IMG/VR virus record: IMGVR_UViG_3300033182_001261
Location: 1 to 64,000 of that record
Source: a virus
Direction: 5' to 3' (one strand)
Length of the DNA stretch: 64,000 nt
This document shows, piece by piece, positions 9,603 to 60,224 of the stretch. The position numbers and the translations under genes were made by a program. The notes under the pieces were generated by a model. That model was not told where the DNA came from and searched no databases. It was given only the letters and a program-made list of their open reading frames with translations. Each line of letters starts with the position of its first letter. Within the stretch, counting starts at the first letter, position 1.

Positions 9603-11972
9603 ATGTTATTACCATCACTTTATCAAGAATTTATCCACCTATCCAGATATTCTAGGTGGTTGGAAAATAAGGGAAGAAGAGAAACTTGGGAAGAAACCGT
9701 CGATAGATATATGAGTTTCTTTGACTCACACTTAATGGAAAAATATTCGTACAAGATTCCAGAGGAGACGTATAAAAAAGTTAGAAAATATATCTTAGAA
9801 CTCAAAGTGATGCCTTCAATGAGAGCATTGATGACTGCAGGTCCTGCTCTGAAAAGAGATAATGTTGCTGGATATAACTGCGCTTACACTGCTGTTGATA
9901 AACTACGTGCGTTTGATGAAATCCTTTATATTCTAATGTGCGGAACAGGTGTTGGATTCAGTGTTGAAAAATATCATACAAAGAAATTACCAACAGTCGC
10001 AGAAACATTTGAAGATTCTGACACCACAATTGTTGTAGGAGATTCCAAAAAAGGGTGGGCAAAAGCATATCGTGAACTTATTTCTCTTTTGATTTCTGGT
10101 CAGGTTCCAAAGATTGATTACTCAAAAGTAAGACCTGCTGGAGCAAGATTGAAAGTTTTTGGTGGTCGAGCCTCTGGTCCAGAACCATTAAGACAATTGA
10201 TGGAGTTTACAATCAGCACGTTTAGAAATGCTGCTGGAAGAAAGTTGTATCCAATTGAGTGTCATGATATCGTATGTAAGATTGCTGAGATTGTAGTTGT
10301 AGGTGGAGTAAGACGTTCTGCTCTTATTTCTCTATCTGACTTGAATGATGATAGAATGAGAAGTGCCAAATCAGGTCAATGGTGGGTTATTGATCCACAT
10401 AGAGCGTTAGCAAACAACTCTGTATGTTATCGTGAAAGACCTGATATTGGAACCTTCATGGAAGAGTGGTTATCATTATATCGTTCAAAGTCTGGAGAAC
10501 GAGGTATCTTCAATCGACAAGCATCAAAGAAAACAGTTGAAAAGTTAGATGGTAGAAGAGAAATGGAACATGACTTTGGAACTAACCCTTGCTCCGAAAT
10601 CATATTGAGGTCAAAAGAGTTCTGTAATTTATCAGAAGCAGTTGTTTCTAAAGATGATACACTTGAAACTCTGATGGAAAAGGTTGAAGTTGCTGCTATC
10701 ATAGGGACTTGGCAATCAACATTAACACACTTTCCATATTTGTCAAAGCAATGGAAAGAAAACTGTGAAGAGGAAAGACTTTTAGGAGTATCTCTCACAG
10801 GTATTATGGATAATGAATTGACTAACGGTAGGGGATTGAGACCTCTTAAAGAATTCTTACCTAAGTTGAGAGATAAAGCATTGAAGATGAATGAAAAGGT
10901 ATCTGAAGATATCGGAGTGAACCCTTCTGCTGCAATCACTTGTGTAAAACCTTCTGGATGTAATGATTTAGATAATACTGTAAAAACTAAAGATGGTATC
11001 AGAAGTTTCAGAGAAATATTTGAAGATAATGGTATTGATTTAGAATCCATGAAAGAAGATGAATGGTTTGATTTGAAGAAACCTGTTCAAGTTTATGATA
11101 TGAATAATGATCTTCAAAATGTTTCTAAACTTTATTGCAATGGAGTAAAAGAAGTTTATGAAATACAAATGGAAGATGGTGAAGTTTATAAATTCACAGG
11201 AAATCATAAACTTTTACTTTCAACTGGTGAATGGAAAAGAGTTGATGAGTTAGAAGAAGGTGATGATATAAAATCTTTCATGTCAGGAAGAGTTTTCAAC
11301 CTAATTGCTAAAATCAAAAAAATAGAACAAAAAGTTATGACTGTTGATATGGAAGTTGAAAACACTAATTCATATCAAATGGAAAATGGTATGGTTGCTC
11401 ATAACACAGTATCACAATTAGTAAATGCTGCTAGTGGTATTCACGCAAGACATTCTGAATATTATATCAGAACTGTTAGAGGTGACAAGAAAGACCCATT
11501 AGCGCAATTTATGGTTGAGATGGGTTTCCCGCATGAGGATTGTGTAATGAAACCAGAGCATCAATGGGTGTTCAGTTTTCCAGTCAAGTCACCTGAGAAT
11601 GCTGTATTCAGAAATGATATGTCTGCTATTGAACAGTTGGAATTGTGGTTAGACTATCAAAGATATTGGTGTGAACACAAACCTTCTGTGACAGTTTCTG
11701 TAAAAGAACATGAATGGTTTGAGGTTGGTTCTTGGGTATGGAAACATTTTGATGAAGTTTCCGGTGTATCCTTTCTACCAAGTTCCGACCATACATACAA
11801 ACAAGCACCTTATCAAGAATGCGGAGTTGAAGAGTATGAAGAACTTTTAGCAAAGATTCCTCAAGATGTTGATTGGTCTGGTTTAGAAAAATTTGAGAAG
11901 GAAGACAACACCAAAGGTGCGCAAACTTATAGTTGTACTGCTGGTAGTTGTGAGATAGTTGACCTTACGTAA
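9603..11972 (+). CDS. nrdJ: Class II (B12-dependent) ribonucleotide reductase, intein-containing
   Basis: MPSMRA, YNCAY, GGVRRSALI, TNPCSEI, TCVKPSG|TVSQL, C-terminal CTAGSCE. Confidence 0.93.
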   Translation: MLLPSLYQEFIHLSRYSRWLENKGRRETWEETVDRYMSFFDSHLMEKYSYKIPEETYKKVRKYILELKVMPSMRALMTAGPALKRDNVAGYNCAYTAVDKLRAFDEILYILMCGTGVGFSVEKYHTKKLPTVAETFEDSDTTIVVGDSKKGWAKAYRELISLLISGQVPKIDYSKVRPAGARLKVFGGRASGPEPLRQLMEFTISTFRNAAGRKLYPIECHDIVCKIAEIVVVGGVRRSALISLSDLNDDRMRSAKSGQWWVIDPHRALANNSVCYRERPDIGTFMEEWLSLYRSKSGERGIFNRQASKKTVEKLDGRREMEHDFGTNPCSEIILRSKEFCNLSEAVVSKDDTLETLMEKVEVAAIIGTWQSTLTHFPYLSKQWKENCEEERLLGVSLTGIMDNELTNGRGLRPLKEFLPKLRDKALKMNEKVSEDIGVNPSAAITCVKPSGCNDLDNTVKTKDGIRSFREIFEDNGIDLESMKEDEWFDLKKPVQVYDMNNDLQNVSKLYCNGVKEVYEIQMEDGEVYKFTGNHKLLLSTGEWKRVDELEEGDDIKSFMSGRVFNLIAKIKKIEQKVMTVDMEVENTNSYQMENGMVAHNTVSQLVNAASGIHARHSEYYIRTVRGDKKDPLAQFMVEMGFPHEDCVMKPEHQWVFSFPVKSPENAVFRNDMSAIEQLELWLDYQRYWCEHKPSVTVSVKEHEWFEVGSWVWKHFDEVSGVSFLPSSDHTYKQAPYQECGVEEYEELLAKIPQDVDWSGLEKFEKEDNTKGAQTYSCTAGSCEIVDLT
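10959..11405 (+). mobile_element. Mini-intein (149 aa, no homing endonuclease) in the RNR
   Basis: Starts at Cys after KPSG, block B FTGNH, ends ENGMVAHN followed by Thr; removal restores KPSGTVSQL. Confidence 0.92.
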
Positions 11973-55791: not shown

Positions 55792-56160
55792 TTAGTTTTC
55801 TTCTTCCCACCATCCATATTCTGGTAAAGGATCAGCAAAATAACAATTATCATAATCTTCTGGAATCCAAAAACCATATCCGTATCCCTTTCCTAATGCT
55901 ACTCCATTACCCTCACCGCAGTGATTCGGATTGTCTAGGTCTCTATGATCCCCCTCATAAGATAGAGTTAGTTCCCCATACCATTCCCCAGTATTATAGT
56001 CTTGTCTAGTTATAATCCACTGGATTAATTCAAAACCGTCACCAGTCCTTCCATATGATGCTTCTCCCCAACCAAACCCTCCAATTTCCCCAGTTTCAGG
56101 ATAATAATTCCGTAGTGTTGAAATTGTTTCAAAAGTGCATTTATTTTTCTTTGTACTCAT
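55792..56160 (-). CDS. Gly-motif small protein 4
   Basis: GEGNGVALGKG; C-terminal CYFADP. Confidence 0.7.
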   Translation of the reverse strand: MSTKKNKCTFETISTLRNYYPETGEIGGFGWGEASYGRTGDGFELIQWIITRQDYNTGEWYGELTLSYEGDHRDLDNPNHCGEGNGVALGKGYGYGFWIPEDYDNCYFADPLPEYGWWEEEN

Positions 56161-56392
56161 AGTTCCATCCATATCCTTGACAGACTCCTGTTCCTGACCC
56201 TGTTCCTTGATTATGCCTACCTATATATCCCGACCCATTAGCGTTTCCTGTTGCATAATCTTCTCCTGCATCCGTGTATCCTGATTTACATCCCCCTCTT
56301 CCGTCAGAGTTACCAGAACCTCTTCCACTTTCATTGGGCCATCCTCTTCCTTCAGAGTATCCCATTCCATATTGAGGTTTATTAATCGTCAT
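56141..56392 (-). CDS. Gly-motif small protein 3
   Basis: GMGYSEGRG, GRGSGNSDGRG, GSGTGVCQGYG. Confidence 0.7.
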   Translation of the reverse strand: MTINKPQYGMGYSEGRGWPNESGRGSGNSDGRGGCKSGYTDAGEDYATGNANGSGYIGRHNQGTGSGTGVCQGYGWNYEYKEK

Positions 56393-56594
56393 AATAATCT
56401 ATACCAGAACCTTTTGCTATTCCGGCACCACATCCATCTTTTTCCCATTCGTCACCATAGAAAAAAGTTTCACACCTTGGAACAGAATCGTACCCTTCTG
56501 GACAACCTGTTCCGTATCCTACTGATTGCCCATCACCCCATCCGATGAATTCAATATTATCATCGTTATCACATATGGGATCAAATATATTCAT
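56382..56594 (-). CDS. Gly-motif small protein 2
   Basis: GWGDGQSVGYG, GCGAGIAKGSG. Confidence 0.7.
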   Translation of the reverse strand: MNIFDPICDNDDNIEFIGWGDGQSVGYGTGCPEGYDSVPRCETFFYGDEWEKDGCGAGIAKGSGIDYYDD

Positions 56595-56604
56595 ACATCA
56601 TTCC

Positions 56605-56886
56605 TTACGAGACTTTTCCAAAAAATTCATACTCTTCTGAATATAACTTGGGAGGGTCTGCCAAACAGATTATACCATGCCTATCATGCTCATATCCGGA
56701 ACCAGTGGACATACCTCTGCCATATCCAGTATCAACCCATTCTTCATACTGCGATTTCATCTCAATACCTTCACCATCAGAGCACCCCTTTCCACATCCA
56801 TTAGAGAACATGCCAGAACCTCTAGCAGAACCCCCTCCGAATGTTGAAAAAATCCCATCATAATAACTATGATTGCGAAACTTCAT
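56605..56886 (-). CDS. Gly-motif small protein 1
   Basis: GCGKGCSDGEG, GYGRGMSTGSG; C-terminal CLADP; GAGG RBS. Confidence 0.7.
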   Translation of the reverse strand: MKFRNHSYYDGIFSTFGGGSARGSGMFSNGCGKGCSDGEGIEMKSQYEEWVDTGYGRGMSTGSGYEHDRHGIICLADPPKLYSEEYEFFGKVS

Positions 56887-57226
56887 GGGAATATTCCTCA
56901 CAAGAGTAAATAATATCCCTAGCATATTCAGTAAGAGGTCCGAGTTCCTCCCATCCGTTCAGCACTTTATACTCCTCTGGAAGCATAACAGTGCTTTCAG
57001 AAGGATTTGACATCCCATTTACGGACAAGTCAGAACAATCAACTGCTCCAACCCATCTTCGGATCCGTCTGGAATTCTCAAGGACAAGAATATTTCCCTG
57101 AGCTCCGATTTGTGATAGTTTTCCAACGAAAACTCCTGCCATATTAGAACGAACTAATATGTACTTTCCGATAAAACTTTTTACCCATCCATTTTCAATT
57201 TCATTTATTTGCATCATAATCCTCAT
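56867..57226 (-). CDS. DUF6948-like small beta-barrel protein
   Basis: IGKYILVR...AGVF.G.L......L.NSRRI..W.GA...S.L...G, recalled family pattern. Confidence 0.7.
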   Translation of the reverse strand: MRIMMQINEIENGWVKSFIGKYILVRSNMAGVFVGKLSQIGAQGNILVLENSRRIRRWVGAVDCSDLSVNGMSNPSESTVMLPEEYKVLNGWEELGPLTEYARDIIYSCEEYSHEVSQS

Positions 57227-57382
57227 TAATATTCATAAAGTCTAGAAACGCCAACCCAAAACATAGAAGGCATAAAATAAAACAGTTCATACTCACAATC
57301 AATAAAAATACATTCATTATAATTTCCTTTTATCTAAACTAATATTAGTATATTATAAAAGAGGGATAATGTCAATAAGTTT

Positions 57383-58732
57383 TTAAAAAAAACTTTCCAA
57401 ACTAAAAGTTTTTTCAACTTCGAAAAATTTAGACCACATATCTTCCCCATTTTGGACAAATTTAGGATCGGCAAAAGCAGGAATGCTGTGTTCTATCCCA
57501 CAAGGAATTCCTAATGCTAAATCAATATAGTCTTGTGCTATTTTCTTTCTATCAAACTGCTTAATCATTTCAAAGTTATTGTTTGCTATTCTCTCATACT
57601 CTTCTTTTGTGATTGTCAAAAAATCGTTAATAGCATCTGCGTATTGTTTTGGAGTATAGTCATACTTCAACATCAAATAATTTTCGTCAGGAGTAAATAA
57701 AGACCCTACCCCATCCTCATTACACGATATACCAAGATTGACAGCAATAGGAACTGTTCCCATTCTCATTGCTTCAACCAAAGTTCTGTTGAAATGTTCT
57801 CCGTAAGTTTTAGACCAAGTTGAATCAATAAAGAACATTGACTCTCTCAATATTGAATCTCTTCTATTTTCTGATATGAATCCGATATATTCCATACCGT
57901 AGGTCAAAGCATTGTCCCATATCTTATTCCCTAGAAGTTCTTGCGAAGCATCTGGGTCTCTTTGTAAGGAGCAGTAATACTCTTCCTTACATTTGTCTTT
58001 GGACGTCATATATGCCCTCTCAATACCGTCCCCACCAACAATAACATCACAATAATTCAGATGAGGGACACAAGAAACTAAATCATCAACCCTTTTCATT
58101 TTCTTAAAAGTCTGGAGTGAAAAAATTTGTCTCTTACGATTCCCAAAATTTATATCTGGATTCACATCACTAATATCTTGAGGATTCAGAATCATTGACC
58201 TAGGAATATCCATAAACTCTGCCGACTTATAAGCAGAATCGTGGACACAAGCAACACCAGAAAGACTATTCTTGAATTTATAAACCCAAGGGTACAATTT
58301 CTGTAAGTTGCCATCATGGACTATCATAACCTGTTTTGATTTCACACTTTCAATCATTGGCAACCAAGTTGTATTCTTTTTGGAACTCTTATTCTTGAAT
58401 CCGAATATACTTTCCCATATTACAATATCATGCTGATTAGCCATTCGAACAAAATCATCCACACTATCTTGATTGAGAAAGGAATAATAGTTTGTCATCC
58501 ACCCTTTACCTTGATGGACAGGAATTCCTGTTCCTGGACCGATTTCATATTCGTTCTGTAAAAGTTCATCAACATTTTGAATATTCACAGTTTTAGGTTT
58601 CTGTGTTGATGGTTTTAGGAAAGCGAAAGTGACTTCATGCCCCAAATCTTTTAATCCTGCTATTAACTGCTCTGTGTGATTTATAATGCCACCATAGTTG
58701 TAAAATTGGTGGACTGGAACTAATATTTTCAT
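57383..58732 (-). CDS. GT-B fold glycosyltransferase, probable DNA base glycosyltransferase
   Basis: GGI..H.EQL..GL..LGH.V, HD, KRVDDLV, EHFNRTLVEAM; ATGA-type overlap with the dioxygenase gene. Confidence 0.8.
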   Translation of the reverse strand: MKILVPVHQFYNYGGIINHTEQLIAGLKDLGHEVTFAFLKPSTQKPKTVNIQNVDELLQNEYEIGPGTGIPVHQGKGWMTNYYSFLNQDSVDDFVRMANQHDIVIWESIFGFKNKSSKKNTTWLPMIESVKSKQVMIVHDGNLQKLYPWVYKFKNSLSGVACVHDSAYKSAEFMDIPRSMILNPQDISDVNPDINFGNRKRQIFSLQTFKKMKRVDDLVSCVPHLNYCDVIVGGDGIERAYMTSKDKCKEEYYCSLQRDPDASQELLGNKIWDNALTYGMEYIGFISENRRDSILRESMFFIDSTWSKTYGEHFNRTLVEAMRMGTVPIAVNLGISCNEDGVGSLFTPDENYLMLKYDYTPKQYADAINDFLTITKEEYERIANNNFEMIKQFDRKKIAQDYIDLALGIPCGIEHSIPAFADPKFVQNGEDMWSKFFEVEKTFSLESFF

Positions 58733-60189
58733 AAACCAAGAAATCCTTCAAGTGTTGGTGATTCTTCTTTTAGCGCTTCGGGATGATACTTCTCTAATAT
58801 ATCACTTCCCATCTTTTCTGTCAAGTAGTCATACCATTCTTGCTCATACCACATATTAGGAGATACTCCATTCCAACTTTCTCTCCATAAAGGATGATTT
58901 TGATTCATTCTTCTATCATCCACAAATTGTCTTCTTGTCTTTTCATATTCCCATGAACCTAACACCTTCATATCTTCACGGAAATAAAAGACCAAGGACA
59001 TTCTCAAAAAATCTTCCTCACCAGAATCAGGTGCTTCTATTGGAGTATTAGCATGTATAATCCTCATATTGTCTATTAGGAGTAAATCTCCTGGACGAAC
59101 ATTGATGGCAGCACGAACTTCTGGAGTGACAAGATATCCACCTTTCCAGTTTTTACCTTCTTTTGTCACAACCGTCAGATTGGAAAAACCATCATTCAAA
59201 GAACCTGCATCACGATGACATGCCATTCTAGCATTTCTATCAGCAGAAGTAGTATTCACTGTTATAGTTGTAAATACTGTATCCTCACCTATTAGAAACT
59301 TTTTATCTAGTTCATTAGTATATCCATTCTGGACACCCCATCGAACAGGCATTAATCTCTTAAATTCGGAGTTCAATTTTCTAGCAAATGGGAAAGACTT
59401 TGCGAACTTTTCCATATTCCTTTCTGTGTAAGCAACGGCTCTGCCATATGGTATTCTAGGATACCTGCCATAATACCCTGCGATACCAGACCATATTGGA
59501 TTCGCATAAACAGTTATGGAAATATATTTCTTCTTAAACTCTTCAATATACTTCTTTGCTTCTTGCACATCCATACTTTTCAACAAAGGGATAAGTTTAT
59601 TATCAAAGAATCCAACATACCTATTTCTCATAAGTCTGTCTTTATTGTCAGGATCACCAAAATCACGTGCAACCCTATAACCAATCCAAGTCATATACCT
59701 TGCTTTTGAGGAATCAATATCACCAGATTCATGCTTTTTCCTGATAGATTCTAGGACATCCGAACCATCCAAAGATTTCGGTTGACCATCCTCAAAATAT
59801 TTTATAACTTCTGCTTCATATGGAGAAACATAATCTCTCAGACTGTTTTCGTGACCATTCCCTGCAGCATATCCCCGATTATCAGAAACTACCGCAGCAT
59901 CATAAAGTCCTTCATAAGCACCTTTCTGCTCTTCTTCTGTAAAGACATTTTTTCTAAACTTAAATGCTACCCTATCTTCTGTCAAAGAATCTTTATCCCA
60001 AATATCATTTGATGGTAAATAAAAATCAGCGTCAGAATCTATCAGAATATCATAAAAAGATTCATCAGGAAAATTACCGAGAACAGTTTCATCCTTTTTT
60101 ATGAATTCTGCCACATAAACATCTTGACCCTCATCACCTTTGAATTTTTTCCAGACGTTTCCGTTAATTTCAATTGTTTCTATTTTCAT
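58729..60189 (-). CDS. TET/JBP-family 2OG-Fe(II) dioxygenase
   Basis: SGIAGYY.RYPRIP, FTTITVN, HRD (HxD), GGYLV.PE, PGDLLL.D...IHANTPI, R.SLV.Y.RE. Confidence 0.85.
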   Translation of the reverse strand: MKIETIEINGNVWKKFKGDEGQDVYVAEFIKKDETVLGNFPDESFYDILIDSDADFYLPSNDIWDKDSLTEDRVAFKFRKNVFTEEEQKGAYEGLYDAAVVSDNRGYAAGNGHENSLRDYVSPYEAEVIKYFEDGQPKSLDGSDVLESIRKKHESGDIDSSKARYMTWIGYRVARDFGDPDNKDRLMRNRYVGFFDNKLIPLLKSMDVQEAKKYIEEFKKKYISITVYANPIWSGIAGYYGRYPRIPYGRAVAYTERNMEKFAKSFPFARKLNSEFKRLMPVRWGVQNGYTNELDKKFLIGEDTVFTTITVNTTSADRNARMACHRDAGSLNDGFSNLTVVTKEGKNWKGGYLVTPEVRAAINVRPGDLLLIDNMRIIHANTPIEAPDSGEEDFLRMSLVFYFREDMKVLGSWEYEKTRRQFVDDRRMNQNHPLWRESWNGVSPNMWYEQEWYDYLTEKMGSDILEKYHPEALKEESPTLEGFLGL

Positions 60190-60195
60190 ATCAAT

Positions 60196-60224
60196 ATTAT
60201 ACACCATAAGTTAAATCATGTCAA
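60196..60224 (-). promoter_or_regulatory. Sigma70-type promoter of the dioxygenase-GT operon (probably leaderless)
   Basis: TTGACA-N17-TATAAT, 6 nt before ATG 60189. Confidence 0.75.

Follow-up and report, generated by a model that had tools for sequence, protein, structure and literature searches.

The operon at positions 55792 to 57375 of IMG/VR virus record IMGVR_UViG_3300033182_001261 raises the question of what role is played by a small conserved gene, a member of the DUF6948 family, that is followed on the same strand by four short and mutually diverged genes encoding proteins with precisely spaced glycines. The DNA analysed, referred to below as the window, is the first 64,000 nucleotides (nt) of this 77,326-base record, which is ~35% complete as estimated with CheckV. 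An earlier note on the window had described the four glycine-rich proteins, designated here P1 to P4, together with a fifth copy at a distance (P5), and had proposed that a conserved protein is paired with a variable and expanding set of partners. What is new here is a non-repetitive, multi-gene version of an uncharacterised two-gene phage cassette in which DUF6948 is accompanied by a (Gly-X)n repeat protein. No paper mentioning DUF6948, its Pfam accession PF22253 or the cassette was found.

A scan of IMG/VR with an alignment of diverse DUF6948 proteins confirmed 410 loci, of which the best 80 were read. An open reading frame (ORF) was counted as a partner when it had at least 15 residues in a GxGxG register and started between -60 and +250 nt from the DUF6948 stop codon. 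Such an ORF is located directly downstream of DUF6948 in 67 of the 80 loci, as compared with 2 of the 1778 other ORFs in the same loci, both of which are immediately upstream of DUF6948. Inspection of nine of the 13 apparent negatives revealed that most carry the repeat and were missed through contig ends, long overlaps or a frameshift; the repeat is clearly lacking in one (L063) and reduced to a short remnant in another (L030, identical to L031). At 60% identity, the 80 loci group into 16 clusters. A second, independent set of loci came from genomes of Bacteria and Archaea; here the repeat is directly downstream in 67 of 70 usable loci versus 1 of 118 upstream control windows, and record titles name Acidobacteria, Planctomycetes, Proteobacteria, Firmicutes, Spirochaetes, candidate-phyla bacteria and several archaeal groups. 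The same gene pair is present in the named phages Ralstonia NK-7, Pectobacterium Taid and Chlorobiaceae CV-1-33. Genes flanking the 80 loci fall only into small, lineage-specific clusters with no conserved third gene, and the unit is therefore the pair. The earlier note had described DUF6948 genes as often neighbouring glycine-rich ORFs, and had named a lack of co-occurrence across genomes among the findings that would refute its proposal; the neighbourhood is borne out in both collections, which favours the link.

The partner encoded in most phages begins with M-x(3-15) and continues as (Gly-Ser/Tyr/Asp)n, is highly variable in length with runs of ~20-120 residues, and is without Cys. Intermediate forms occur in other lineages, for example at loci L038 and L073. 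In the window, the partner is also directly downstream of DUF6948, with an overlapping start, and is hydrophilic, acidic and variable, but there is no long Gly-X run and the operon is therefore a variant rather than a canonical member. That it belongs to the DUF6948-(Gly-X)n cassette is, on this evidence, very probable. A different departure from the usual form is seen in some gut phages (L026:2785-3402 and similar loci among L027-L048), in which the repeat is fused to a conserved C-terminal domain of ~150 residues (IKTFNGDKVYIIDD...) with no match in Pfam or NCBIfam; repeat lengths there range from ~45 to 100 residues, even among phages that are near-identical elsewhere. The (Met/Leu-Ala)n ORF annotated as gene_25 of Chlorobiaceae phage CV-1-33 (L008:3286-3531) was considered as an exception and rejected, as another frame that overlaps the DUF6948 stop encodes a normal Gly-X partner (MDGINYGYGDGDGSG...); from these sequences, the annotated frame is probably wrong.

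All of the junctions in the operon are overlapping or near-abutting, as had been claimed for these minus-strand ORFs. The DUF6948 gene (56867-57226 (-)) has a likely start at 57214 that results in a protein of 115 amino acids (aa). P1 (56605-56886 (-); 93 aa, three glycine islands) is read from an ATG at 56886 that overlaps the stop end of DUF6948 (56867) by 20 nt and is preceded, 7 nt upstream, by a GAGGAA site; through this overlap, translation of P1 would be coupled to that of DUF6948, and a 106-aa version of the P1 ORF that starts at 56925 is probably over-extended. P2 (56382-56594 (-); 70 aa, two islands, net charge -13) is the best conserved partner and is overlapped, through ATGACGATTAA, by P3 (56141-56392 (-); 83 aa, 27% Gly, two exact islands). 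P4 (55792-56160 (-); 122 aa, net charge -14) overlaps P3 in turn, is rich in Trp, Tyr and Phe, and has one exact and one degenerate island; its start, MSTKKNKC, is the same as that chosen by gene callers elsewhere. P1 ends in CLADP and P4 in CYFADP, the two shared C-x(1-2)-ADP endings that had been reported.

A sigma-70-like promoter candidate, TTGACA-17-TATACT (57375-57347 (-)), with 11 of 12 consensus matches, is positioned ahead of the operon; the total number of promoter-like sites in the region does not exceed that in shuffled sequences, and the candidate is a consensus match only. The earlier note had proposed an operon with a promoter at 57370, which agrees with this position, but had overlooked the ORF at the head of the operon, which encodes a hydrophobic 38-aa peptide (MNVFLLIVSMNCFILCLLCFGLAFLDF...; 57201-57317 (-)), has an AAGGAA site upstream and overlaps the start of DUF6948. 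This peptide is conserved directly upstream of DUF6948 in two relatives (L001 and L003), and its ORF may belong to the operon of this lineage as a third component.

The feature common to the partners is the glycine island. The exact pattern G.G.G...G.G has nine matches in the six-frame translation of the 64 kb, all nine inside P1 to P5, whereas 0.004 matches are expected from the glycine frequency and 0.01 from 100 shuffles (maximum 1). The eight instances listed in the earlier note are all real, but the ninth, GSGTGVCQGYG in P3, had been missed. Residue 7 of the motif, which had been noted as usually small, is S, A or G in 51 of 54 relaxed instances (one mismatch allowed) in the proteins of the window and its relatives. 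The motif, as judged from these sequences, is therefore a run of six alternating small residues, G-x-G-x-G-x-[S/A/G]-x-G-x-G. Its spacing is kept in the P1 alignment at 35-41% identity, where the invariant columns are almost all Gly or Ser, the others being a single Tyr, a single Phe and a single Pro. The longest strict alternation in P1 to P5 extends for 11 to ~15 residues, and each partner has two to four islands within unique Asp/Glu/Tyr/Trp/Phe-rich sequence with few Cys. Beyond composition, pairwise similarity among P1 to P5 is modest (z 1.1-5.6), so that their description as paralogues is based mainly on shared motif and position.

Membership of P5 (35661-36005 (+); 114 aa) is less certain. 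It has two exact islands, one of them hydrophobic (GLGVGLAIGSG), and modest similarity to P1 to P3 (z 3.1-4.0), but it is encoded 20 kb away with no DUF6948 neighbour, and no relatives of P5 were found in IMG/VR or in two related records. P5 is, from these comparisons, only a possible member of the set and the weakest of the five. Two other readings of the islands were rejected. A function at the level of DNA, as a hexanucleotide satellite or Chi-like sites, does not fit the absence of long DNA repeats, with only 14-23 nt matches of the GGTTCTGG type present and conservation at the protein level; and glycine-zipper membrane helices (GxxxG) do not fit the strongly hydrophilic P1 to P4, as only the P5 island GLGVGLAIGSG is apolar and it has just 11 residues.

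The DUF6948 protein of the window matches PF22253 with an E-value of 2.8e-11 and 43.8 bits, relative to a cut-off of 27, over profile positions 1-81 of 85, and scored 44.1 bits in the genome search. An AlphaFold2 (AF2) model based on a 51-sequence alignment has a predicted local distance difference test score (pLDDT) of 88.7 and a predicted template modelling score (pTM) of 0.81. In this model, helices are followed by strands at residues 21-26, 31-39, 45-56, 83-89 and 91-96, with three additions to the Sm/LSm fold as described, an N-terminal helix and then a strongly bent barrel of five beta-strands, namely a helix between strands 3 and 4 (63-69), a short strand (78-80) and a C-terminal helix (99-106). 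The top structural matches are all SmAP, Lsm or Sm proteins (Foldseek E 2e-4; VIA-align Z 9.0 over 74 residues, root-mean-square deviation 4.1). Hfq structures rank lower, with Z 5.2-5.7 versus 8-9 for archaeal and eukaryotic Sm proteins, and LSM14 bound to 4E-T (PDB 6f9w) and EDC3 are among the structural matches, with a weak match to LSM14 also in Pfam. On the basis of the model, we confidently assign DUF6948 to the Sm/LSm fold, with the helix inserted after strand 3 as an extra element. The small beta-barrel protein of the earlier note is indeed a barrel, but AF2, Foldseek and VIA-align together make it more specifically an Sm/LSm one, and with this fold the protein would most likely act on RNA, or else bind peptides in the manner of LSm domains. 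In an alignment read by eye, the Sm1 Gly-x-Leu is kept, as F-x-G-x-L; the remaining conserved elements look different from the loop 3 Asp/Asn and loop 5 Arg-Gly-Asp/Asn of an RNA-binding pocket, with NARR-h-W-x-W in strand 3 and I-E in the final one. The profile phrog_18306 has the Gly-X repeat at positions 57-99 and DUF6948 at 154-236, which suggests that some phages may encode both in one protein with the repeat ahead of the Sm domain; no such fusion was present among the 80 IMG/VR loci read.

Ratios of non-synonymous to synonymous substitution (dN/dS), calculated by the Nei-Gojobori method, are 0.02-0.08 for DUF6948 and 0.16-0.62, 0.06-0.44 and 0.21-0.59 for P1, P2 and P3, respectively. By this measure, P1 to P3 are real genes under purifying selection that evolve ~10 times faster than DUF6948, in keeping with the earlier treatment of these ORFs as genuine coding sequence. 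These ratios, together with invariant columns that are almost all Gly or Ser, argue that selection acts on the proteins and specifically on the islands. Five IMG/VR contigs (L001-L005) encode DUF6948 at ~90% identity followed by three glycine-island genes. P4 is absent from all five, so that relatives differ in copy number (3 versus 4-5), and the P3 slot is occupied in relatives by a protein of 101-106 aa with four islands. The proposed pairing of a conserved protein with a variable, expanding set of glycine-rich partners is supported.

Islands of this kind have a narrow distribution. A P1 profile search of 1.84 billion representative proteins returned six hits, of which five are relatives from this lineage or their fragments; the sixth, a 1594-aa protein with the island part matched in five stretches, is taken as compositional. 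The P2 family has 12 members at 73-89% identity, with no match by tblastn against GenBank phages, and only two relatives of P4 were found, at 83-93% identity and neither in IMG/VR; searches with P2 and P4 recovered only close relatives. None of P1 to P5 has a match in Pfam, PHROGs, NCBIfam or PADLOC, other than a weak KRTAP match of P4 (E 0.056) that is compositional, and for P2 and P4 there are no ESM Atlas models or usable neighbours. On the basis of these searches, the island-type partner is a rare, lineage-restricted variant, with the P1 type found only in this marine phage lineage.

Within the lineage, the partner genes change in length and in content. Some P2 relatives (P0011, P0013 and L005:523-777) have an insertion that creates a third island (TGLGLALGSG), and in a P1 relative (P0020) an in-frame deletion joins island 1 to the end of island 3. 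Short DNA matches of the GGTTCTGG type between islands (56310, 56401 and 56810) could mediate such variants. Contigs from seawater runs stop matching the window at gene borders (55798-55806, 56379-56396 and 57319-57330), and one continues into a different glycine protein in the P3 slot that begins MIDDECGYGLG. With breaks at these borders, the partner genes behave as exchangeable cassettes in natural populations. No run was listed as RNA; three short contigs over P4, DUF6948 and the 38-aa ORF came from one that is possibly RNA but may be DNA.

The explanation that we favour is a lineage-specific version of the cassette in which the partners act as detachable tails, and we give this explanation as a whole a probability of about 40%. 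In most phages the partner is one hypervariable repeat, and in the marine lineage this would have given rise to several non-repetitive, acidic and aromatic-rich proteins, for the most part disordered. By analogy, these would be detachable low-complexity tails of the Sm-like protein, a tentative proposal that we consider somewhat doubtful when taken by itself. The alternating-glycine islands would be the element that the Sm-like protein recognises, and might dock as an additional beta-strand; an extended island strand, which lacks side chains on one face, could join the edge of a beta-sheet or lie flat against the conserved Arg-Arg-x-Trp-x-Trp surface. Once an island is docked, competition with the target of the Sm-like protein early in infection, or modulation of its binding, would come from the acidic and aromatic segments; that target is most likely RNA, and several different tails could provide several specificities for one conserved core. 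The closest analogy for the action of the partners would be the acidic C-terminal domain of Hfq. The partners are all hydrophilic, with grand average of hydropathy (GRAVY) values of -0.6 to -1.27 and net charges of 0 to -14, and the AF2 model of P2, the best conserved, has no confident fold (pLDDT 37.6), a result that lends no support to the tightly packed glycine hairpin fold envisaged in the earlier note. In its widest form, the proposal would be of a split Sm system in phages across Bacteria and Archaea, in which a conserved core and separate, exchangeable tails that dock through the 11-residue island set the capture of RNA or host proteins; the marine lineage would then be the most evolved, with four or five tails for several targets, possibly including nucleic-acid-mimicking decoys against RNA-based control or defence by the host. 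We regard this extension as speculative and unlikely.

Several observations weigh against the tail proposal. The binding of DUF6948 to its partners is only proposed, by analogy, and RNA, although the most likely ligand, is a putative one. The conserved residues R25, A29-G30-V31, R52-R53, W57 and E93, located in the alignment by eye, do not obviously correspond to the classical Sm uridine pocket, and a peptide-binding LSm domain of the LSM14/EDC3 type is therefore equally possible. A prediction of the complex of DUF6948 (51-row alignment) with P1 (6-row alignment), run without controls, scored 0.02 relative to a mark of 0.32, which counts neither for nor against binding. The P1 profile search retrieved no canonical (Gly-X)n proteins from the 1.84 billion representatives, so that descent from the repeat is argued from position, composition and island pattern rather than from alignment. 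P3 has a net charge of 0. The alignment behind the P2 model is shallow, with 12 sequences, and a low pLDDT is no proof of disorder. P2 keeps Cys8, Cys41 and Cys55 and many invariant Trp, Tyr and Phe positions, the middle segment of P4 is hydrophobic and core-like, and both proteins could fold, alone or on binding.

These last features speak for the partners being small, independently folded proteins, built of glycine-faced beta-strands or hairpins stabilised by metal or disulfides, with a role unrelated to DUF6948 and an adjacency that is historical; the C-x(1-2)-ADP ending common to P1 and P4 would also fit. AF2 did not, however, find a confident fold for P2, and adjacency to DUF6948 is kept in two independent collections with hosts named from many phyla, which makes mere history unlikely and this explanation improbable. 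Short tandem ORFs with Gly, Ser and Cys near each other, as in GCGKGCSDGEG, are likewise reminiscent of ribosomally made modified peptides, for which the partners would be precursors with Gly/Ser/Cys cores as in microcin B17. The operon does not, however, encode a cyclodehydratase, dehydrogenase, radical SAM enzyme, protease or exporter, its neighbours being a glycosyltransferase, a MORN-repeat mini-protein, small ORFs and a tRNA. The only ATP-grasp gene of the window is 55 kb away, there is no leader-core architecture, and the canonical partners of other phages are without any Cys, all of which leaves such precursors very improbable.

The variation documented above is open to a different interpretation, close to the decoys or inhibitors of host defence envisaged in the earlier note, in which the partners are effectors, decoys or nucleic-acid mimics directed against host defence sensors or RNA- or DNA-binding proteins, with DUF6948 as their chaperone or adaptor and the copies a product of an arms race. 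The tenfold faster evolution of the partners, the difference in copy number, the breaks at gene borders with a different glycine protein in the P3 slot, the variants generated by deletion or insertion between islands and the early-type promoter candidate ahead of the operon would all be consistent with this, and acidic tails with aromatic residues do mimic single-stranded nucleic acid in T7 gp2.5 and SSB. Fast evolution and length change are, however, expected of any disordered, weakly constrained protein, P1 to P5 match no PADLOC or PHROGs model, and the cassette is carried by phages whose hosts span many phyla of Bacteria and Archaea, which argues that the target is something very general and not one particular defence system. 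We consider effectors of this type unlikely. A condensate or scaffold, in which FUS-type partners with Tyr stickers and Gly/Ser spacers combine with a multivalent Sm-like ring to form a membrane-less compartment that concentrates RNA or enzymes, is in our assessment quite unlikely. Canonical partners do have a G/S/Y/D composition with many [G/S]Y[G/S] triplets, the proteins of the window keep 1-5 such aromatic triplets each except for P5, which has none, Sm rings are multivalent, and translational coupling suggests a fixed stoichiometry, but the partners in the window are short (70-122 aa) with few sticker triplets, and strong net negative charge would oppose self-association without a basic or RNA partner.

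The window as a whole, with 28-37% G+C, encodes an FtsH-like protease, a RimK-type ATP-grasp enzyme, a DNA ligase and a subtilase. Near-identical DNA is present in seawater, marine and estuary runs from at least 11 studies, and one P2 relative is filed at the National Center for Biotechnology Information (NCBI) under a Rickettsiales metagenome-assembled genome (MAG); on these grounds, the window is from a large marine phage. A ribonucleotide reductase gene (9603-11972 (+)) contains an intein splicing domain (Pfam E 1.1e-09). The region immediately upstream of the operon (57383-60207 (-)) encodes two enzymes, a TET/JBP-type dioxygenase (Pfam E 3.7e-13) and a GT-B glycosyltransferase. Relatives L001-L004 carry other genes at this location, and the DNA-modification pair therefore looks like an insertion or exchange. 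The operon continues downstream of P4 (55389-55753 (-) and 55043-55116 (-)) with a MORN-repeat mini-protein of 64 aa (Pfam E 4.3e-07), a Cys-rich protein of 56 aa and a 65-aa protein, and then a tRNA-Asp (GTC). Asp is among the commonest residues of the partner proteins, and this tRNA-Asp (GTC) is downstream of their operon.

With 410 loci in IMG/VR, DUF6948 and its Gly-X partner are among the more widespread phage gene pairs without an assigned function. The window reveals what pure repeats cannot, as here the repetitiveness is lost and selection has preserved an island of 11 residues with small residues in alternation, in two to four copies per protein; this suggests that the repeat proteins are arrays of such elements. 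The island is a concrete, synthesisable candidate for the element that binds the Sm-like protein. An Sm core with exchangeable tails, if true, would be a new viral use of the Sm fold and would offer a compact model for the tuning of Sm proteins by low-complexity tails.

The nearest known systems are the canonical pairs of DUF6948 and (Gly-Ser/Tyr/Asp)n proteins in Ralstonia phage NK-7, in which the partner is annotated as a 'fibroin heavy chain-like protein', Pectobacterium phages Taid and Ymer, Chlorobiaceae phage CV-1-33 and Iodobacter phage PhiPLPE. Their head proteins belong to the same family above the Pfam cut-off and are strongly conserved. As in the window, the partner gene is variable and directly downstream with an overlapping start, and its product is Gly-rich, acidic and Tyr-rich in an alternating-glycine register. 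The window differs in three respects. Its partners have 11-residue islands only, embedded in unique sequence that is acidic and aromatic and includes Cys and Trp; the single partner gene is replaced by four in succession, with perhaps another at a distance; and a conserved 38-aa hydrophobic ORF is located ahead of DUF6948.

Outside phages, Gly, Ser and Tyr make up most of the low-complexity domains of FUS, EWS and TAF15, in which [G/S]Y[G/S] triplets occur. This composition is shared especially by the canonical partners, but the phage proteins have a strict two-residue register, are strongly acidic and very short, and occur in a prokaryotic or viral context. In eukaryotes, SmD1, SmD3, SmB and LSm4 are Sm/LSm proteins with dipeptide-repeat tails. 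They have the fold predicted for DUF6948, with an Sm domain likewise associated with a Gly-containing dipeptide repeat, but their tails, continuous with the Sm domain in one polypeptide, are basic (Arg-Gly), whereas the phage partners are acidic (Gly-Asp/Tyr/Ser) and separately encoded. LSM14 with 4E-T (PDB 6f9w) and EDC3 illustrate the use of LSm domains as docking sites for short peptides. Hfq of Escherichia coli has a disordered C-terminal domain with an acidic tip that competes with RNA at the Sm core (PMC5606850), and the domain in Caulobacter Hfq does likewise (PMC6561178), while Hfq of Acinetobacter baumannii has Gly-rich GGFGGQ repeats (PMC11617691, PMC5663733). DUF6948 is not detectably related to Hfq by sequence, and its RNA binding is only putative, but in both cases a core with the Sm fold is combined with an acidic and/or Gly-rich low-complexity segment that, in Hfq, tunes binding by the core. 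The segment is in the same polypeptide in Hfq, whereas in the cassette it is encoded by a separate, coupled gene, present in the window in several versions, and by this analogy the cassette resembles an Sm protein and its low-complexity tail divided between separate genes.

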